In this document: piece after piece, positions 1,630-19,202 of the stretch
Position numbering within the stretch: the stretch's first letter is position 1
How the letters are laid out: every line of letters starts with the position of its first letter
Assembly: GCA_038046345.1 (NCBI GenBank)
Contig: JBBSWJ010000019.1
Span: forward strand, 51,183 to 72,163
Direction of reading: 5' to 3'
Origin: Nanobdellota archaeon
Lineage (GTDB): Archaea > Nanobdellota > Nanobdellia > SCGC-AAA011-G17 > JACPNG01
Length of the DNA: 20,981 bases
The notes under the pieces: model-generated
Databases searched by the model: none
Seen by the model: only the letters and a program-made list of their open reading frames with translations
What the model was told of the DNA's origin: nothing
Made by a program: the position numbers and the translations under genes

Positions 1630-2346
1630 TTATTTATTATAAATACTTGGATCTTTAACATTAGCCCAATAAAAAGCAGCTTGTCTTTGACGGCAATTAG
1701 AACAATAACCACAATGAGCTGGTAAATTATTTTTAAAATCGCTACCAGTATAACAACTGTAAGTAAATTCTAAAGGAACTTTTAGTTTTTGAGCTAAACT
1801 AACAATTTCATCTTTATCAAAATCAATTAATGGAGCAATTACTTTATAACCACCATGATGAGTGCACTCTTCTGCAAGATTATTAATGGCGTTAACAAAA
1901 CTTGGAGTAGAATCCTTAAAAGTTATCTGGCCCTCCTTTTTTATGCCGATTATTATGTCGTATCGCTCTTTAGTTTTAATAAATAAAGATTCAGCATGAG
2001 CCAGGGCAGAAATTAAAAATAAAGCATTTCTGCAAGGAACATACCAATTCAGCACATCTTTTTTTTCACGCTTAATATCTTCAAGATCTTTCATGGTAGT
2101 TTCTTGAACTGTTTTATTAGAATTGATCATTGAAGTGCTAATATCATTAAGCCATCTGATATCAATAACTTTAAAAGAAACGTTAAGTTTTTTAGCAATG
2201 GCTTTCATACAAAAAAGCTCTTCACCTAAACATCGTTGTCCATAATCAAAGAATAATAAACTAATTTTTTCATAATTTCTCTTAACATAATAAGCAGCAG
2301 TAACGCTGTCCAATCCGCCGGAAGTTACCACAATTGCATTACTCAT
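1630..2346 (-). CDS. queC: 7-cyano-7-deazaguanine synthase (QueC family)
   Basis: SGGLDS PP-loop, FDYGQR, YVPCRN, and C-terminal Zn motif SCY...CGYCSNC. ATG 2346 (MSNAIVV) preferred over the TTG at 2355. Confidence 0.92.
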   Translation of the reverse strand: MSNAIVVTSGGLDSVTAAYYVKRNYEKISLLFFDYGQRCLGEELFCMKAIAKKLNVSFKVIDIRWLNDISTSMINSNKTVQETTMKDLEDIKREKKDVLNWYVPCRNALFLISALAHAESLFIKTKERYDIIIGIKKEGQITFKDSTPSFVNAINNLAEECTHHGGYKVIAPLIDFDKDEIVSLAQKLKVPLEFTYSCYTGSDFKNNLPAHCGYCSNCRQRQAAFYWANVKDPSIYNK

Positions 2347-2368
2347 TTTATTCAATGATACAAAAATC

Positions 2369-2376
2369 TTATAAAT
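2369..2376. promoter_or_regulatory. Centrally placed TATA element serving divergent queC and aIF5A-like genes
   Basis: TTATAAAT (+) / ATTTATAA (-); 21-28 nt from ATG 2397 (+) and 23-30 nt from ATG 2346 (-). Confidence 0.55.
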
Positions 2377-2396
2377 ATTATCCTGTCCATGATGGC

Positions 2397-2594
2397 ATGG
2401 TTATAGCAAAAGATCTGAAAGAAGGGGATAAAATCACCTATGAAGGAGCTGTATTTGAAATAAAAAAAATACAAATTTCTAAAATAGGGAAGCATGGGAG
2501 ATCTAAATGCAGATTAGAAGTTGTTAACAAAGAAACAAAAGAAGAACTAATATTGATTAAACCATCAGAACAAGAATTTGAAACTGTATCATAA
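2397..2594 (+). CDS. aIF5A/eIF5A-like protein, N-terminal hypusine-loop domain only (65 aa)
   Basis: MVIAKDLKEGDKITYEGAVFEIKKIQISKIGKHGRSKCRLEVV matches the IF5A N-domain with GKHG. Start 2397 chosen from TATA spacing. Stop overlaps the next ATG (TAATG). Confidence 0.8.
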   Translation: MVIAKDLKEGDKITYEGAVFEIKKIQISKIGKHGRSKCRLEVVNKETKEELILIKPSEQEFETVS

Positions 2595-3499
2595 TGATAT
2601 ACATAGTAATTACTAGCTACAATGAACCGCTTGCTACAATAAAAGCAATAGAGTCAGTACTAAAGCAAGAATTTTCTAAAGAGTTTAAGCTAATAATCGC
2701 AGATCCCTTTGAAGACGTGTTATGGGATTTAGAAGAAAAATTTGGAAATAAAATTGAGTATTACCAGGATGAAGGGAAAGGTAAAAGTGTTACACTAAAT
2801 CAGATCATAAAACAGTATTACTCAAAAAATAAAGATGAAATATTTATATTTACAGACGGAGATGTTTATCTAACAGAAGGAAGCATACAGAAAATAATTG
2901 ATGCTTTTGAAGATAAAACTATTGGAGTAGTATGCGGGCAGCCAATTTCTATGAATTCTAAAGATAATATGCTAGGGTATTGGTCTCACTTGTTATTATC
3001 TGAGATGAATAAAACAAGAAAAAAAGCTCATCAAAAGAAAGAATTCTTTGAAGTAAGCGGGTACTTGTTTGCAATGAGAAATGGGGTAATAAATAGTTTT
3101 CCTGTAAATGCTTCTGAAGATAATGTGATACCAGCATTGTTTTGGAGTAAAGGGTATAAAATTGGTTATGCAGAAGAAGCAAAAGTGATGGTACTTAATC
3201 CGCAAAACTTTAAAGACTGGGTAATACAGAAAAAGAGAAATTTGAAAGGGCATATCTCATTAAAGTACGTGAATGCTAAAAACACACCAAGGAAAAATAC
3301 ATTCTTTGGAGAAGCAATTAGGGGTTTAAGATTTGTATTTATTTATCCTAGCAATGTTAAAGAATTCTTTTGGACTTTTGGAGTGTTATATGGAAGGTTA
3401 CACGTATGGGCATTAGCATATTATGAAAGTAAGTTTAAAGAGGATTATAAAGATGGCTGGAGGGAAGAGACTACAGATTCAACAAAACCTCTTGATTAA
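2594..3499 (+). CDS. Glycosyltransferase family 2
   Basis: IVITSYNE start, FTDGD DxD motif, SED...GY...A.V...P and QKKRN (QxxRW-like). Confidence 0.9.
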   Translation: MIYIVITSYNEPLATIKAIESVLKQEFSKEFKLIIADPFEDVLWDLEEKFGNKIEYYQDEGKGKSVTLNQIIKQYYSKNKDEIFIFTDGDVYLTEGSIQKIIDAFEDKTIGVVCGQPISMNSKDNMLGYWSHLLLSEMNKTRKKAHQKKEFFEVSGYLFAMRNGVINSFPVNASEDNVIPALFWSKGYKIGYAEEAKVMVLNPQNFKDWVIQKKRNLKGHISLKYVNAKNTPRKNTFFGEAIRGLRFVFIYPSNVKEFFWTFGVLYGRLHVWALAYYESKFKEDYKDGWREETTDSTKPLD

Positions 3500-4064
3500 T
3501 ATTTTTTAAAGTGTTATTATTGATTTGGATAATCTTAATCCTTTCAGGAAAAGCTTTAGCAATATCCTTAAAACCTTGGTCTAATTTTTTTAGGAAAAGT
3601 TTTTCTTCTGTTGAATATTTTTTTTGATTTCTTTCTTCAGCCCTTTTAATACAACTTTCAAAAGAATCTGTTAATAAAATTGTTTTATCCGGAACATTGC
3701 CTAAAAGTTTTCTTTTTTCCCAAAGTTTTTTAAAATTTGTAATTAAATCACCTTTAAGTTGAACTGCAGTGTATAAGCATGTAGTATCTGCGCCACGATC
3801 TTGCAAAACTATTTTGTTATTTTTTATGCTTGGAGCTACTTTCTCTTGGTGTATTATTGAATCTACTTTTGAAAACGCTTCAAATTCTATCATTGGTTTG
3901 TTGCTTCTAAAAAAAATATCGTTATTTTTTAATGAGTTAATAATTTTTAGTGCTTCACCATCGCATTCGTCATCGAGAATAACCTCAAACTTAGGATTAT
4001 TTTTTAGCTTTCTTAAGAAAAAACTTTTTCCTACGCCTTCAAGCCCTTCAAAGGTTATGTACAT
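3471..4064 (-). CDS. tmk: Thymidylate (dTMP) kinase family protein
   Basis: ITFEGLEGVGKS P-loop at the N-terminus, VLQDRG (DR motif), PDKTILL, lid region CIKRAEER. Confidence 0.8.
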   Translation of the reverse strand: MYITFEGLEGVGKSFFLRKLKNNPKFEVILDDECDGEALKIINSLKNNDIFFRSNKPMIEFEAFSKVDSIIHQEKVAPSIKNNKIVLQDRGADTTCLYTAVQLKGDLITNFKKLWEKRKLLGNVPDKTILLTDSFESCIKRAEERNQKKYSTEEKLFLKKLDQGFKDIAKAFPERIKIIQINNNTLKNINQEVLLNL

Positions 4065-4443
4065 TTTTTAAAACCATCCTTAATTCTTTTATGGAGTGTA
4101 CTAATTTAGCTGATTGGCTGATCATGGGGTTAAGAGTAGTTAATCTTGAATCTGTAACAAGCCCAATACATTTGATGTTTTTACTGAAAGCATAACCAAG
4201 CTCCCAAGCAGTGCCGGAGTCAATATCATTCCCGCTTAATATTGCGATTATCATTTGGCAGGTGTCAATGCCTGCTTTATCTTTTTTGAAAATAATCTTT
4301 TCATCTGTGCCTTTGCTTATTAAACCTGCATCTCTATGCGGGAGAAATGTGTCAAATCCAAGGTCTTTGCATACCCTATTAACCTCTTCTAACAGCGTTC
4401 TTTCAATCTCACTGAATAATGGTCCTGCAATATATACTATCAT
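4048..4443 (-). CDS. Nucleoside 2-deoxyribosyltransferase / N-glycosidase family protein
   Basis: VYIAGPLFS, FLPHRD, IFxxD, DSGTAWELGYA (catalytic Glu), NPMI. Confidence 0.88.
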   Translation of the reverse strand: MIVYIAGPLFSEIERTLLEEVNRVCKDLGFDTFLPHRDAGLISKGTDEKIIFKKDKAGIDTCQMIIAILSGNDIDSGTAWELGYAFSKNIKCIGLVTDSRLTTLNPMISQSAKLVHSIKELRMVLKNVHNL

Positions 4444-4496
4444 TTTGTATGTTTAAATTAGGAAGATTAAAAAAACTTACCATGCCATTTTAAGAA

Positions 4497-5606
4497 ATGG
4501 AAATAAAATGGAATAGAAACTGTAAAGAATATAATGGAGTATATGCGTGTGATATCCTAAAAAGTGAAGGATATAACAGCTGTAATGACTGCGATTTTTA
4601 TGAGCCAAGAGGCAAAAAAATATTTATAATAAAACTAGGCGCATCAGGCGATGTATTAAGAACAACACCAATCTTAAAGGCAATAAAAAAGAAATATGGA
4701 AGCGACTGTCATATCACATGGTTAACAAAAGATTTCAATAGAGAATTATTATACGAGAATGAACTAATTGATGAAGTGATAACATTAAGCGAAGATATAA
4801 TGAGATTAAAATATGAACAATTTGATGTTTTATTCAATTTTGAGATTGATACACCGGCTACACTTATAGCCAGAGAGATAAATGCTGTACAGAAATTTGG
4901 ATACTTTTTTGACAGTGACGGCCATCCATCAGCGTATAACCCTAAAGCAGAATTTTATCTAAACAGAGCATTATCAGACAAGATAAACAAAAGCAACACC
5001 AAGACATATCAAGAGATGATATTTGAAATAGCAGAATTAGATTACAACCAGGAAGATTATATCTTGAACTTAACTGACGATGAGAAAGAATTAAGCGTTA
5101 AACTAAGAGAGCCTTACAAAGGACTACCAATAATTGGAGTTGTAGTCGGAGCAGGATCAAGATGGCCATCTAAACAATGGGACAGAGATAATTTAATCGG
5201 TCTAATCAAAAAACTCCGCGGTGTAATATTATTATTATCCGGACCAAATGAACCTGAAGGGATACAGCAAGAAATAGTAAAGGAACTAAAAAATCATCAA
5301 TTTCCAATAATGATGAATAACCCGCATAATACCCTAAGAGAGTTTATCAGCGCAGTAAACGCATGTGACTTGTTTATTTGCGGAGACAGCTTAGCTTTAC
5401 ATATAGCATTAGCTTTACAAAAAAAAACAGTTGGGCTATTTTTTTGCACTCCAGACTGGGAGGTTGAAGGCTATGGCAGGTTAAAGAAATTAGTAAGCCC
5501 GTTGTTAATGAAGCATTTCTATACCGATGAGAAAGTAAAAGAACTAGGAACAAGTATTACAATAAAAGAAGTTATAGAAAAAGTTAAAGAATTTCAAACT
5601 AATTAG
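4497..5606 (+). CDS. Glycosyltransferase family 9 (heptosyltransferase-like) with N-terminal Cys4 extension
   Basis: IIKLGASGDVLRTTP, GAGSRWPSKQW, ICGDSLALHIALAL; N-terminal C-x8-C-x10-C-x2-C. Confidence 0.9.
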   Translation: MEIKWNRNCKEYNGVYACDILKSEGYNSCNDCDFYEPRGKKIFIIKLGASGDVLRTTPILKAIKKKYGSDCHITWLTKDFNRELLYENELIDEVITLSEDIMRLKYEQFDVLFNFEIDTPATLIAREINAVQKFGYFFDSDGHPSAYNPKAEFYLNRALSDKINKSNTKTYQEMIFEIAELDYNQEDYILNLTDDEKELSVKLREPYKGLPIIGVVVGAGSRWPSKQWDRDNLIGLIKKLRGVILLLSGPNEPEGIQQEIVKELKNHQFPIMMNNPHNTLREFISAVNACDLFICGDSLALHIALALQKKTVGLFFCTPDWEVEGYGRLKKLVSPLLMKHFYTDEKVKELGTSITIKEVIEKVKEFQTN

Positions 5607-5619
5607 AAAAGATGATAAC

Positions 5620-6078
5620 ATGGATATAATTCAATCTATAGGAGTAATAAAAAAAGAAGCAGAGATTTTTATAGCACAAGTTCTTTTAAGACTGCAAGAA
5701 GAAGGAATCAATTTTAGTCATAGCCCAATAGGCCATGTCTGCTATCAAGTAGCTAATGTAAATAGATATAAAGAATTACACCAAGTATTATTAGATGATG
5801 GAAATGAAGTAATATATGATAATATGTTTAAACTTAAAACACCAATAAACTGTAACTCAATATTTGGGGAGTATAATGTTTCATGCTTAGAACTACTAGC
5901 ACCGCGAGGAGAAAAGCTTTCTAGTGAAGGTTTTAGGCGTTTAGAATTTTTAGTATCAGACATTAATCAATTTGCAGAACTTTATCCAGTATTCTCAAAT
6001 ACTGATATATCACCGGGAAGAAGAACATGCAGTGCTGTATTTGATGGGGTTACAGTAAAGGTTGCTGAATACAGTTAG
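5620..6078 (+). CDS. VOC-fold protein, YecM-like
   Basis: GHVCYQV near the N-terminus, ELLAP and EGFRRLEF resemble YecM DHI.LR / ELP.P / EGWEHIE. Confidence 0.6.
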   Translation: MDIIQSIGVIKKEAEIFIAQVLLRLQEEGINFSHSPIGHVCYQVANVNRYKELHQVLLDDGNEVIYDNMFKLKTPINCNSIFGEYNVSCLELLAPRGEKLSSEGFRRLEFLVSDINQFAELYPVFSNTDISPGRRTCSAVFDGVTVKVAEYS

Positions 6079-6091
6079 TGATGATACCAAG

Positions 6092-6124
6092 AGAAAATTA
6101 AGCCCGATATCTAACCTTGTTATA
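6092..6124. repeat. 33-bp direct repeat, copy 1 (orphan copy of the radical SAM 3' end)
   Basis: agaaaattaagcccgatatctaaccttgttata; 30/33 identical to 7547-7579; minus strand reads YNKVRYRA*. Confidence 0.92.
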
Positions 6125-6128
6125 TTGT

Positions 6129-6830
6129 TTACTTGTTATTTTTTTCTAAGATCTTTTTAATCAACATTTTGGCTGCATGAAAATTCTGTTCTCTGTAAGA
6201 GAAAGGTCCAAATATTCCTTTGAAGCTATCATTAAATTGTGGCTTGTTAAGAAAGTCTGATTGTTTTTTTATTGATTCTTTTAGCTTGTTTACATCTCCT
6301 TTTTGCAAATGCTTTTTAAGCCTTCCAATATTGCATGGCATTAATGCAACAATGTCTCTAATATCAGATAGTCTACCGCTATGTAATTTCATAGCAATGA
6401 GGAGTTCTTTCTCCGGAGTTAAAAATTCAAAATTATTTAGTTTTCTTTTTGTAGAATTTCCTTTGATATAATCTAACCCCCATATTGCGTCTGTTGTCCT
6501 AGAAACTAAGCCATTAATCAGCAAATCAATGTCTATAGGAAGATTTTTCATCTTCTTTGTAAACCGTTTAAAATTAGCTCCATAAATTAATTCTACATTT
6601 TTTTCATAGTGTAAGGTGTAACCTTCTTTTTTTAGAAGCTTTTCATATACCATGAGCTCTTCTTCTTTTATTACTATGTCTAAATCAATTGAGAATCTTT
6701 TTTTGTAAGTTGAAACTGCGTAACCGCCCACTACTACAAAGTATAATTTTTTGTCTAAAAGAAGATTAATGATCCTCATAACTTCTTGTTCTCTTTCCAG
6801 CAATCCAATCCGTGAATTAGTTTTATACAT
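6129..6830 (-). CDS. Nucleotidyltransferase (pol-beta superfamily, AbiEii/type IV toxin-like)
   Basis: VVVGGYAV...RFSIDLDIV (GG/A + DxD), IDIDLL, KLHSGRLSDIRD (K...R.xD helix). Confidence 0.8.
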   Translation of the reverse strand: MYKTNSRIGLLEREQEVMRIINLLLDKKLYFVVVGGYAVSTYKKRFSIDLDIVIKEEELMVYEKLLKKEGYTLHYEKNVELIYGANFKRFTKKMKNLPIDIDLLINGLVSRTTDAIWGLDYIKGNSTKRKLNNFEFLTPEKELLIAMKLHSGRLSDIRDIVALMPCNIGRLKKHLQKGDVNKLKESIKKQSDFLNKPQFNDSFKGIFGPFSYREQNFHAAKMLIKKILEKNNK

Positions 6831-7476
6831 TTGTTGATATCTCTGCGTATCTTTCGTTTAATCTTAAATTGTAAATCTTGTTTAATTGCTCTAAGATGTT
6901 TTCTAAATGTAATTCTTTCCCCCAATTAACTAATTCATTTAAGGGCATAACAGGTATACCATTTATTTTTTCTATTTTTAAATTATCTTTCTCTATAACC
7001 CAGACTAATGGTCTTTTGTTATTTTTTTCTCCTTCAGTATAACTAATTCCTTCTTTTTTCAAGGCTTTTTTTAATTTATCTTCATCTTTTTTTTCAACTT
7101 CTAAAAAATAAATTCTATCGTAGAAATCTCCTGTGATAAAACCACCTTTTGTCCATATCGCTGCAGCTGTTCCTTTTACAAATCTTATTCTTAATTTTAA
7201 TATTTTAATTAAATCCCAAAAGTTATTATCTTTTTCAATAACAGAAGTAGCAGTATCTAATTCTTTAAATTTTTTGTAGATTAAATTCTTGTTAATTTTG
7301 ATGATATTTTTATTTCCATTTCTGATTAAATTAATAACTTCGTACTTTTCTAATTCTAATACCCATTTGTAAACTGCAGAATAAGCAAATCCAATCTTAG
7401 AAGCTAAGCTATAAATGCTTTCTCCGTCTTCTGCATTTTTTACTATGCTCATTGTTATTTCATTTACTATTACCAT
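6823..7476 (-). CDS. HTH DNA-binding protein, putative antitoxin (AbiEi-like partner)
   Basis: N-terminal HTH SIYSLASKIGFAYSAVYKWVLELEK plus wing; 8-bp overlap with the NTase gene. Confidence 0.7.
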   Translation of the reverse strand: MVIVNEITMSIVKNAEDGESIYSLASKIGFAYSAVYKWVLELEKYEVINLIRNGNKNIIKINKNLIYKKFKELDTATSVIEKDNNFWDLIKILKLRIRFVKGTAAAIWTKGGFITGDFYDRIYFLEVEKKDEDKLKKALKKEGISYTEGEKNNKRPLVWVIEKDNLKIEKINGIPVMPLNELVNWGKELHLENILEQLNKIYNLRLNERYAEISTNV

Positions 7477-7495
7477 TATCTTTAGAAAGATAATG
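7474..7495. promoter_or_regulatory. 22-bp inverted repeat, putative operator over the HTH gene start
   Basis: CATTATCTTT-ag-AAAGATAATG, perfect 10-bp arms, between the TATA (7498-7505) and ATG 7476. Confidence 0.7.
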
Positions 7496-7546
7496 AATTT
7501 AAATACTTTTCTATTGTTTTTATTCTATGTAGTTAGAAGACTTAAA

Positions 7547-7579
7547 AGAAAATCAAGCCTGATATCTAACCTTGTCATA
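7547..7579. repeat. 33-bp direct repeat, copy 2 (active 3' end of the radical SAM gene)
   Basis: agaaaatcaagcctgatatctaaccttgtcata; minus strand reads YDKVRYQA*. Confidence 0.92.
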
Positions 7580-9100
7580 CCAAGACCTAAATGATAAAGG
7601 CATTCTTCTGAAAATAGGTTTAGCTAAATTTTCCCTAAAAAAATCCATAGACTGAACAACAGTACCAGCAGCATAAGTTGGAGTTAAATGTTTTTCATTA
7701 AAGGTTACAGATGAATCTTTGATTAACCTATTAAGAACAGAAGCAGGGATTAAACCATAACGCATGTCTGTGCATGGCCCACGCATCAGATTAAGGACTA
7801 GGGATAAGTACATATTCTTTTTCTTAAGCTTAATATGCTTCCAACGATCCCAATAGTTCAAATCAGATGCAGTATCCTTACCATCTTTAATAAACCCATC
7901 TTGAATAGCTTTTCGATATAATGGAGTTCCTTCAAAGAATATCAAGTTATTTACAGACAGATAGAAGGGTTTAGGTAATTGTCTGATTAGATTAATAGTA
8001 GCAAGAACATCTTCACGAGTCTCATATGGATTACAGGCAATAATATCATACATGACAGTAAGCTTATCCTTAAATTTGTTAACCGCTATAGCAGACTTAA
8101 TAACCTGAGCAGCTGAAATGAATCTATTATATAATTTAAAGTTTAGCTGATCACTACCTGACTGAATCCCAACAATAATATCTGATAAACCAGCGTCAAC
8201 TAATAAGGAAAGTTTCTCAGAAGAAATAACCTCATTACTAATACTTGCCGGTTCTGTTAAGCACTTCATTCTTAGTCCTACTTTCTCTTTGTATTTCTCA
8301 GAAAACTCTCTTAACCACTCAATTGGTCTGATCAAAAAAGTTTCATCGCGTATGTCAATTACACTAATAGAAGGAAAACGATTCTTTAAATCAACAAATT
8401 CTTCAATAACGTAATCAACAGAATGAGTTCTTAATAAATCAGACTTACCTTTGTAAATTTCTCTAAGAATATTATTCGTACAATAACTGCAAGCCTGGGG
8501 GCAACCGCGCTCAGTTTGGAAAAAAAGCATACCACCAATATGGCGTTCTTCAAAATGGATTAGTTTACTATTTTCTAAAATTAATTGAGAATCAATATCA
8601 AAATCCTGATGTGGAAGCATATCTAGATCATGAATTGGTGGGCGAACATGGTTTTTAGTTTCAGTTTTGTTGGTTCTAACCCATAAGTTAGGAATCTTAG
8701 AAATATCTTGGTTTCTTTCCAATGAATTGGCCAAGTCAACAAAAGCATCTTCAGCTTCTCCCACCGCAATAATATCACAATATTTGAAACAATCTTCTGG
8801 AAAAAAAGTAGGGTGCGGACCGCCCCAAACAACCGGAATATTAAGTTTTTTTCCTAAACTAATTAATTGTTTTGCGCGGTCGTTGGTAGAAGCATAAGCA
8901 TTAATGCCAATAAGTTTACAGTCTGATATTTTAGATTCAACTTGATTTAAAACATCTACAGGATATTTAATGGAGTAGTCTTCCGGTAAAGGAAGGAAAA
9001 TTAATTGGACTTGATGTTCTTTAGACTTAAGGTAAGAAGAAATTGTTCTCAGCCCTTGGTCTGCAGGGAAAGTGCTTGTTGAAAGAAGTGCAATCTTCAT
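7553..9100 (-). CDS. Cobalamin-binding radical SAM protein (class B methyltransferase-like)
   Basis: N-terminal B12-binding Rossmann domain (GINA, VVWGGPHPT, VGEAE), TERGCPQACSYC (CxxxCxxC), DETF, GIQSGS. Confidence 0.92.
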   Translation of the reverse strand: MKIALLSTSTFPADQGLRTISSYLKSKEHQVQLIFLPLPEDYSIKYPVDVLNQVESKISDCKLIGINAYASTNDRAKQLISLGKKLNIPVVWGGPHPTFFPEDCFKYCDIIAVGEAEDAFVDLANSLERNQDISKIPNLWVRTNKTETKNHVRPPIHDLDMLPHQDFDIDSQLILENSKLIHFEERHIGGMLFFQTERGCPQACSYCTNNILREIYKGKSDLLRTHSVDYVIEEFVDLKNRFPSISVIDIRDETFLIRPIEWLREFSEKYKEKVGLRMKCLTEPASISNEVISSEKLSLLVDAGLSDIIVGIQSGSDQLNFKLYNRFISAAQVIKSAIAVNKFKDKLTVMYDIIACNPYETREDVLATINLIRQLPKPFYLSVNNLIFFEGTPLYRKAIQDGFIKDGKDTASDLNYWDRWKHIKLKKKNMYLSLVLNLMRGPCTDMRYGLIPASVLNRLIKDSSVTFNEKHLTPTYAAGTVVQSMDFFRENLAKPIFRRMPLSFRSWYDKVRYQA

Positions 9101-17911: not shown

Positions 17912-17926
17912 GTTTAGCTATGAATT
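17912..17926. repeat. 15-bp direct repeat, copy 1
   Basis: GTTTAGCTATGAATT, identical to 19188-19202 (17/18 if extended by 3 nt). Confidence 0.85.
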
Positions 17927-17994
17927 ATTACCTTAACTGGTGCTAGATTTATGGCATCAACAAGTTTAAATATTTCGGGCGCCTAAGATAATTT

Positions 17995-18153
17995 ATGAAG
18001 ATTATGAATGGTCTTGATAAGAAAATTGGCGATACTTGTTATGTAAAATATAGGGCTAACTTGCCAAAGAAAATAGTCGAGGACTCTAACTTGCTAAGCA
18101 AGGAAGTTAGGATTAAGTTAGAGAATGGTAAGATTGTAATTGAGAAAATATAA
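17995..18153 (+). CDS. AbrB/MazE/SpoVT-like small DNA-binding protein (52 aa)
   Basis: MKIMNGLDKKIGDTCYVKYRANLPKKIVEDSNLLSKEVRIKLENGKIVIEKI matches the AbrB pattern (xLPKxI...L...V.I..E.GKIVI); TTTAAATA at 17965-17972. Below the ORF-track size cutoff. Confidence 0.7.
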   Translation: MKIMNGLDKKIGDTCYVKYRANLPKKIVEDSNLLSKEVRIKLENGKIVIEKI

Positions 18154-18175
18154 TTCAATTCATATTAAATGTTAT

Positions 18176-18352
18176 TTAATGTTTTGCTAACTCTCTAAAT
18201 AAATCTTCATCTTCTTTTAATACTATCACTTTTGCTACTCTAATAAGTTCTAATATCTTCTTATCATTCTTAGAAATTTCATAAACAACTTTTCTGTTTA
18301 TCTTCATATTTCCAGAAATATCTATGTTCTTAATTTTATTACTCTCTCTCAT
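18176..18352 (-). CDS. Putative Doc antitoxin (58 aa)
   Basis: Start ATG 18352 overlaps the doc 3' end and has a GGAGATG SD-like motif upstream. C-terminus EDEDLFRELAKH resembles the acidic 'L..LA' tail of Doc-neutralising antitoxins. Confidence 0.55.
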   Translation of the reverse strand: MRESNKIKNIDISGNMKINRKVVYEISKNDKKILELIRVAKVIVLKEDEDLFRELAKH

Positions 18353-18944
18353 TCTCATCATCTCCCAATGTGACTTTAACGAATCTTTCATTTAAATAGT
18401 TTTTTATTTGGCCTTCTTCTATATAGGTGCAATTATTATCCAACCATCTTTTTATATCTTCAAAACTAACTTTACTCTGATATTTTGCAACTTCAAGCAT
18501 AAAATCAGTTGCTTCTTTATATTGTGTCTTTAAATGACATTTATTTATTAGCATAAATATTTTTGCAATGGCATAAGCAGTCCTTTTGTTGCCGTCTATA
18601 AAAAAATGCCTTTTGGCAAATTCATTAATAGCAAAAGCACCGATGCTTATTGGGTTCTTTGTATTTTTGTTTTGATGATTTAATAATTTATATACGGAAT
18701 TATATATCCCGCTGCTATCCCTTATTCCATTTTCACCGCCGCTTAATTTAATAATTGCATCATGAAGATGAGTTATGGTCTCTTCCATTTGTTTTATAAA
18801 TTCTCTAGAAACTCTACTTCTTGGTCTATTCCAGTAAGGGCTTTTACATTTGGGGCAATATTTTGTTACTCTTGATTTTATTCTTTTCTTCCAAGTATGA
18901 TAACACCTAAAACAGAATAAGTTACTATTATTAGCTATAATCAT
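18339..18944 (-). CDS. Fic/Doc-family toxin with N-terminal Zn ribbon
   Basis: HFFIDGNKRTA (Doc-type HxFxDGNKR); N-terminal CFRC-x15-CPKC followed by KSPYW. Confidence 0.88.
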   Translation of the reverse strand: MIIANNSNLFCFRCYHTWKKRIKSRVTKYCPKCKSPYWNRPRSRVSREFIKQMEETITHLHDAIIKLSGGENGIRDSSGIYNSVYKLLNHQNKNTKNPISIGAFAINEFAKRHFFIDGNKRTAYAIAKIFMLINKCHLKTQYKEATDFMLEVAKYQSKVSFEDIKRWLDNNCTYIEEGQIKNYLNERFVKVTLGDDENERE

Positions 18945-19021
18945 ATATTACTATATATAATAACATGTATAAAAGCTTTTCTGTCGGTAAGCCATAACCA
19001 TATTACTATGTATAATAACAT
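18945..19021. promoter_or_regulatory. Doc promoter: TATA flanked by two 22-bp repeats (operators)
   Basis: atattactatatataataacat (18945-18966) and atattactatgtataataacat (19000-19021), 21/22 identical, each containing TATTA-N7-TAATA; TTTTATAC (-) at 18967-18974. Confidence 0.7.
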
Positions 19022-19187
19022 ATGCATATTCTGCTCGCATAGGTTTACTTTAGATGATGGCTTCTACAGAATGAGGAATAACCCACAAAAGATAACTCTC
19101 TGCTTGAACTTATTTTACAGTGGAGTGTCTTATTACAAGGAGAGTGCAAGAACATCTACAAGCTTTCTATCCTTAGGTAACAATGTA

Positions 19188-19202
19188 GTTTAGCTATGAA
19201 TT
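19188..19202. repeat. 15-bp direct repeat, copy 2
   Basis: GTTTAGCTATGAATT. Confidence 0.85.

Follow-up and report, generated by a model that had tools for sequence, protein, structure and literature searches.

How a two-gene toxin-antitoxin (TA)-like unit that encodes no recombinase can come to lie between two copies of the end of a host gene is the question raised by a 20,981-nt stretch of DNA (the window; C19:51183-72163) from the draft genome of a DPANN archaeon, which comprises 821 kb in 35 contigs and is 97% complete. Here, a helix-turn-helix (HTH) gene and a nucleotidyltransferase (NTase) gene separate the 3' end of a B12-binding radical SAM gene from a second, orphan copy of that same end. 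An earlier reading of this DNA (the original prediction) considered the pair as an AbiE-like cassette foreign to the locus, whose arrival had duplicated the gene end and left the radical SAM gene whole, and it drew an analogy with site-specific integration at attB-type sites. Our analysis indicates that the segment from about 6125 to 7543 is probably a self-contained, horizontally acquired TA-like cassette, and that it reached the radical SAM gene's 3' end through insertion with long target duplication.

The evidence begins with the repeats themselves. The 33-nt direct repeats of the original prediction (6092-6124 and 7547-7579; 30/33 identical, all differences being transitions) were confirmed and extend to 36 nt (6089-6124 and 7544-7579), with 32 of the 36 positions identical, sharp borders on both sides and four mismatches (at 6091, 6099, 6105 and 6121), every one a transition. 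Comparison of the two 700-nt flanks with each other gave a BLAST E-value of 4e-9, while none of 700 random 1.34-kb segments of the same genome had flanking direct repeats (E<1e-5), so that a chance origin of the pair is excluded. No third copy of the 36-nt repeat was found in the 821-kb genome, even with up to nine mismatches allowed. The resident copy (7544-7579, minus strand) covers the final eight radical SAM codons together with the TGA stop (7553-7555) and nine T-rich nucleotides beyond it; it encodes the true C-terminus, YDKVRYQA, of a 515-aa enzyme whose gene (7553-9100, minus strand) is intact after the insertion. Because the tail WYDKVRY[KR][AV]-stop is kept in about 65 orthologues from genomes and metagenomes, the repeat must be host DNA and the resident copy the native gene end. 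The orphan copy (6089-6124, minus strand) reads YNKVRYRA-stop, the invariant Asp having been replaced by N, and it lies 4 nt past the NTase stop, just as had been described. Only the HTH and NTase genes, which share the minus strand and an 8-nt overlap, are found between the two copies and, in agreement with the earlier claim that no recombinase is present, neither matches a recombinase family. When the cargo and one copy are removed in silico, 19 nt remain between the radical SAM stop and the stop (6076-6078) of a convergent YecM/VOC-like gene, where about 20 bp had been anticipated; in the present arrangement, the orphan copy is placed at the same stop-to-stop distance from that gene.

Composition and distribution both support the notion that the cargo is foreign to the locus. 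Its GC content (27.6%) falls in the lowest 0.2% of 1.4-kb windows in a genome averaging 34.0 +/- 2.4%. Neither the HTH nor the NTase gene follows the radical SAM gene in any of the 12 genome and 74 metagenome loci inspected (approximately 85 related loci in all), and so relatives do not share the pair at this place. The NTase is present in 31 of 240 genomes from the order, in a single one of 16 from the family, and in 21 of a 401-genome sample covering the class. Its best public homologue is 79% identical and another from a different order is 73% identical, whereas the sole homologue from the same family shares only 63% identity; by comparison, the radical SAM gene reaches at best 69% identity anywhere. 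Such a pattern points to horizontal spread. The HTH gene lies directly upstream of the NTase gene in 45 of 45 loci (with an overlap that is typically of 8, 4 or 1 nt), and the two proteins co-vary in identity. The homologues carry the names Woesearchaeota, Pacearchaeota or Nanoarchaeota and, with the archaeal SSU and LSU rRNA genes detected in the genome, identify the organism as a DPANN archaeon. A 74%-identical homologue (P0031) is listed on 25 contigs and under a bin named as Parcubacteria, a group of the bacterial candidate phyla radiation, and represents either a mis-binned archaeal contig or cross-domain carriage. Two relatives of the NTase are broken, namely L121 (G213:C43) and G047:C17:59339-59761, one having an in-frame TAA and the other being truncated with a TGA and a TAA, and the module is thus decaying in these copies. 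A collection of viral contigs, searched with two peptide patterns, contained no relative.

A key piece of information came from a mobility survey in which the flanks of all 45 HTH-NTase loci were scanned for repeats. Significant flanking repeats were detected at 11 of the 45 loci (controls, 0/700), and all of them are direct, each of a different sequence, 21-79 nt in length and 89-97% identical. They overlie gene ends or starts at seven of the 11 loci. The original prediction had suggested searching for the same gene pair at other gene 3' ends, and it was indeed found there, with repeats that copy the ends of genes encoding peroxiredoxin (a second cassette in the same genome, on contig C30), SecDF, GH3 and a small 108-aa open reading frame (ORF). 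Other targets are the first 22 codons (5' end) of a NUDIX gene, promoter DNA, and the DNA just after a tRNA-Thr gene. At two loci, the host segment that was duplicated includes the NTase stop codon, which means that the junction on the right can lie among the final codons of the cargo. No recombinase recurs in the neighbourhood, the 126 nearest neighbouring ORFs being distributed among 118 Pfam families; together with the variety of repeat targets, this indicates that the cassette inserts at many unrelated sites and brings no enzyme dedicated to the task. Alignment of 14 cassettes showed neither a conserved sequence nor an inverted repeat downstream of the NTase stop. An integron cassette was rejected on this ground, since the 3' ends bear no attC-type inverted repeat and the brackets are copies of host genes. 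More generally, integron attC, retro-copy and transposon models were discarded, as the unit brings a promoter with it, lacks both conserved ends and inverted repeats, and is flanked by repeats of variable length. In the subfamily closest to the window cassette, the NTase frame of L111 (4375-5952) and of L145 runs into shared sequence that starts a type I HsdM methylase gene, the pair there travelling beside a restriction-modification system.

The same bracket was encountered around other toxins when direct repeats lying 0.3-6 kb apart were searched for throughout the genome and combined with Pfam scans. Besides two NTase pairs, three further repeat-flanked toxin cassettes were found. The second HTH-NTase-type pair (C30; L174:1682-3474, also L002), which is 32% identical, has a 36-nt repeat (33/36) copying the last codons of the peroxiredoxin gene; a wHTH-Fic gene (wHTH, winged helix-turn-helix) adjoins it. 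A HicB/HicA pair (C27, L172:938-1828) is enclosed by a 91-nt repeat (99%) taken from inside a class I Tyr/Trp-tRNA synthetase gene, its right side running into N bases, and a 313-aa Fic gene (C17, L171:1148-2324) by a 49-nt repeat just upstream of the start of the next gene. Finally, within the window itself (17912-19202), a Fic/Doc module in which two small ORFs accompany a Zn-ribbon Fic/Doc gene (18339-18944, minus strand) has a perfect 15-mer at 17912-17926 and 19188-19202, where none is expected by chance. Since unrelated toxin cassettes of one genome show the same bracket, the insertion route is not specific to the HTH-NTase cargo, and this in turn argues against the NTase or the HTH protein acting as the recombinase.

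A comparison between two congeneric genomes provides a view of such a landing site in different states. In G027 (L156, G027:C30:700-7400), the 3' end of a gene for a 326-aa protein of the PD-(D/E)XK nuclease family occurs three times, bracketing a bona fide AbiEii cassette and then an HTH-NTase cassette, while in its congener G048 (L187, G048:C3:1-8500) two copies of this gene end enclose HEPN/MNT and HicB-like genes. The downstream flank shared by both genomes starts exactly at the last repeat copy, which means that, at one landing site, the HTH-NTase pair is present in G027 and absent in G048. Copies 1 and 2 of the gene end differ by six synonymous and two conservative changes. The 3' end of the PD-(D/E)XK gene is a recurrent landing site where different toxin cassettes pile up. 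At another sister locus, comparison of G038 with G166 revealed a conserved gene end followed by different downstream content, and in a genus-level search for empty sites of sister loci, G222 returned tRNA matches only.

The nature of the cargo is suggested by its promoter region, motifs and predicted structure. The HTH gene (6823-7476, minus strand) encodes a 217-aa winged-helix protein, a putative autorepressor and antitoxin, and the NTase gene (6129-6830, minus strand; stop at 6129-6131) a 233-aa MenT/AbiEii-like protein, the putative toxin. A TATA-box-like element (7498-7505, minus strand) lies about 25 nt upstream of the ATG, as in archaeal promoters of the leaderless type, and is conserved across cassettes. 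Between this element and the ATG is found a perfect 9+9 palindrome (ATTATCTTT-AG-AAAGATAAT; 7475-7494), a putative operator that overlaps the first two bases of the HTH start codon and is conserved in subfamily 1; members of subfamily 2 have a different palindrome at the same position. Sequence conservation among cassettes extends from about 45 nt before the ATG to the NTase stop, and from these limits it follows that the mobile unit is a promoter and two genes, without terminal repeats.

Among 31 members of the NTase family, GG35-36, R45, S47, D49, D51, D102, K148, R153, D156, R158 and D159 are invariant or nearly so. Motif I of the Pol-beta NTases (GG ... R-x-S/T-x-D-x-D) is present, with G35, G36, R45, S47, D49 and D51 being invariant, and the family alignment also contains the Asp of the second motif and a K...R...D-x-R-D helix motif; the mapping of D102, K148, R153, D156, R158 and D159 onto MenT motifs II-IV is our own reading, made without a residue-by-residue structural superposition. 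The invariant S47, within R-F-S-x-D-x-D, occupies the phospho-acceptor position of MenT3 S78 and MenT1 T39, residues that are auto-phosphorylated and stand beside a catalytic Asp (PMC11375011). An AlphaFold2 model of the NTase (predicted local distance difference test score 91.3) had the Mycobacterium tuberculosis toxins MenT1 (8an4, E 2.9e-7), TglT/MenT3 and MenT4 as its top Foldseek matches, with TM-scores of 0.40-0.55 and JHP933 also near. The profile of the family reached MenT1 in the PDB with an E-value of 0.0014, PF08843 was matched by 19 of the 31 members (best, 3.5e-7), and the PADLOC AbiEii profile matched the window NTase at 7.6e-5, over residues 8-60 only. The model and alignments support a toxin-like fold and toxin-like motifs for the NTase. 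In the partner, residues 1-80 align to wHTH domains of the MarR/ArsR type (Z 10.7, root-mean-square deviation 2.0 over 74 residues). No family was recognized for its C-terminal domain. Fold searches were filled by the N-terminal wHTH, and AbiEi_4 appears among its Atlas neighbours only at 0.90-0.92, in 11-19% of cluster members, which is a lead only. By analogy, the pair may be regarded as an AbiE/MenT-like module, of the toxin-antitoxin or abortive-infection type, that represses itself and has a partner of a new kind; toxicity, neutralization and a role in defence would follow from family resemblance. The AbiE-like label of the original prediction is supported as far as an AbiE/MenT-like two-gene module is concerned. 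The partner matches no AbiEi family.

The surroundings of the insertion have also been rearranged. The window corresponds to a surface-glycan region, with glycosyltransferases, a QueC-type module and a polysaccharide flippase. The YecM/VOC-like gene (5620-6078, plus strand), which borders the orphan repeat as the convergent neighbour on the far side of the cassette, had no counterpart in 40 related genomes and can thus be considered accessory; downstream of the radical SAM gene, relatives usually have QueC, GT2 or GT9 genes instead of YecM. Many of them (L044, L046, L047, L059, L067 and L095) display a convergent block of QueC, GT2, nucleoside deoxyribosyltransferase-like and GT9 genes after the radical SAM gene. 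In the window (1630-6078), the same QueC-GT9 block lies the other way round with respect to the radical SAM gene, which is faced by GT9 and YecM, and a rearrangement breakpoint thus coincides with the cassette site.

Several observations weigh against the account of a TA-like cassette inserted with target duplication. Three quarters of the related cassettes have no detectable flanking repeat. At the window locus, an empty allele was not found, as the 40 nearest genomes and a metagenome scan gave no radical SAM orthologue above 69% identity, and insertion at this particular place is accordingly inferred. A 9-bp repeat outside the 36-nt repeats (ATACCAAGA, with copy 1 at 6084-6092, adjoining the 36-nt repeat on its outer side, and copy 2 at 7577-7585, coding for S-W-Y of the radical SAM tail on the minus strand) is not explained by simple duplication. 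It was considered whether this 9-mer might be the actual target duplication and the inner repeats be borne by the element, an idea that was rejected because the inner repeat is a conserved gene tail and because no counterpart of the outer repeat exists at the 10 other repeat-flanked loci. As to the identity of the cargo, the window NTase has no PF08843 (AbiEii) match at E<=0.01 and scores 27.6 bits against PF14907, below the cut-off of 31.2, while the AbiEi Pfam families are matched by none of 30 partner members at E<=0.1.

Three other explanations for the bracket have to be weighed. The one closest to the original prediction takes the repeats as the attL and attR sites of a site-specific integrative element, whose integrase acted in trans or was lost, with the pair as surviving cargo. 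Gene 3' ends and tRNA genes are classic integration targets, and three or four related cassettes do adjoin tRNA genes; however, the repeats are wholly different in sequence and in length (21-79 nt) from one locus to another, they hug the two-gene unit, no integrase family recurs among the 126 neighbours, the cassettes share no ends beyond some 45 nt of promoter, and unrelated toxin cassettes of the same genome are bracketed alike. We therefore regard att-type integration as unlikely, and the attB analogy does not hold for this family, although the other central elements of the original prediction, namely the foreign cargo, the duplicated gene end and the preserved radical SAM gene, are supported.

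The inversion described above gives some room to the proposal that the pair is old at its site and that the repeat arose separately, for instance through a local duplication when the inversion of the block moved YecM next to the radical SAM gene, in which case it would be no mark of mobility. The region has certainly been rearranged in this lineage, given that the radical SAM gene of relatives usually faces QueC, GT2 or GT9. Against this stand the match between repeat and cassette borders, which is within 4 nt on one side, the recurrence of the same bracket at 10 other, unrelated loci of the family, and the outlying GC content of the cassette, and the proposal is quite improbable. Finally, the genome is a metagenome-assembled draft in 35 contigs, and two strain variants of the gene end might have been stitched around a foreign contig during assembly. 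Such an artefact has a very small probability: the copies differ at four positions within a 76-kb-class contig, assemblies produced independently in other studies show the pattern again, and both the reading frames and the promoter are intact. Insertion with long target duplication would be, on these comparisons, a better fit than att-site integration.

The insertion of the cassette can be envisaged as follows. A target of 36 bases (eight codons, the stop and the T-rich tail) would have been duplicated on both sides of the incoming cassette. The upstream copy would keep the radical SAM gene and its terminator whole, while the downstream copy would be a functionless orphan that maintains the old spacing to YecM and probably terminates the cassette. 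Because the cassette encodes no recombinase, host functions presumably perform the insertion, and two routes can be considered. In the first one, a widely staggered break would be repaired around the incoming DNA, and the two copies would be identical at first and diverge later. In the second, a looped-out cassette carrying a short piece of the gene end of a relative would enter by a single-crossover 'pop-in', and the copies would differ from the start. In seven coding repeat pairs, 13 of 25 differences are synonymous, compared with 6.6 expected at random (p ~0.004); when constraint on the functional copy is allowed for, the expectation becomes about 37% synonymous and the rough p ~0.09, with the signal coming mainly from two loci. 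Both routes fit, and this excess leans tentatively towards the second, for which it is indirect support. A donor for the orphan copy was sought among the orthologues, all of which proved too distant, with at least 6/27 differences versus the 3/27 that separate the two copies.

Once established, the winged-helix protein would bind the palindrome between the TATA box and its own ATG, thus repressing the operon. As in MenT and AbiEii toxins, the NTase would add nucleotides to tRNA 3' ends and stall translation, and the partner would hold it in check, possibly through induced auto-phosphorylation of S47; these three roles are all drawn from family resemblance. A more tentative idea, which we consider possible yet rather doubtful, is that TA cassettes in small genomes may be recombinase-free units in which a short fragment of host gene serves as an 'address label': after imprecise loop-out, such a unit would re-enter relatives by single-crossover recombination at that gene end. 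This would explain why the repeats are long, variable and slightly diverged, the synonymous excess, and the pile-up of cassettes at one gene end and, if true, it would define a separate class of mobile elements, dependent entirely on homologous recombination by the host.

How TA and small defence cassettes manage to spread when they have no recombinases has long been asked. The data described here add to it one archaeal cassette family with an insertion scar in a quarter of its loci, against 0/700 controls, and one 0.8-Mb genome with four or five scars around unrelated toxins. At the level of sequence, the window cassette is a clear archaeal TA example of insertion with long target duplication, accompanied by family-wide statistics and with every tested defining feature present except an empty allele of this locus, and the literature searched yielded no paper describing this mode for TA cassettes. 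A little-studied insertion mode would thus be extended beyond restriction-modification genes and beyond bacteria, to a cargo that need not cut DNA, and an archaeal branch is marked out among the MenT/AbiEii toxins, one whose partner protein is of a new kind.

The closest known parallel is that of restriction-modification units, which insert with long target duplication and carry no mobility genes (Nobusato et al. 2000, Gene 259:99; Furuta, Abe and Kobayashi 2010, PMC2853133). Their duplications measure tens of bases, vary from case to case, have no further copies in the genome and frequently run across a start or stop codon, and the mechanism of insertion, described as unknown, was tentatively tied to DNA breakage by the cargo (Nobusato 2000; PMC2853133). 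The HTH-NTase cassettes resemble them in being small units without transposase or integrase, flanked by long, genome-unique direct repeats of varying length that span gene starts and stops. They differ in that the cargo is a TA-like pair without a DNA-cutting enzyme, so a role of the cargo in double-strand breaks cannot apply, in that the hosts are DPANN archaea, and in that the empty allele was not seen here. As regards the proteins, the regulator-then-NTase order, the overlapping genes and the promoter inverted repeat are shared with AbiE (AbiEi/AbiEii) and MenAT, of the DUF1814 superfamily (PMC7450476, PMC10435456, PMC11375011), and MenT1/3/4 offer the nearest NTase fold, with GG...R-x-S/T-x-D-x-D including the phospho-acceptor position and K...R...D-x-RD. 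In contrast to AbiE and MenAT, the window NTase appears to fall under PF14907/DUF6036 instead of PF08843 and is shorter (233 aa) and, unlike AbiEi and MenA, the partner, which does have a wHTH, has a C-terminal domain that matches neither of these nor any other family. Lastly, the laboratory 'pop-in', a Campbell-type single crossover of circular DNA, likewise leaves an insert between two direct copies of the homology and requires host recombination only, whereas in the natural cassettes the homology would span only 21-79 nt and a circular intermediate was not seen.

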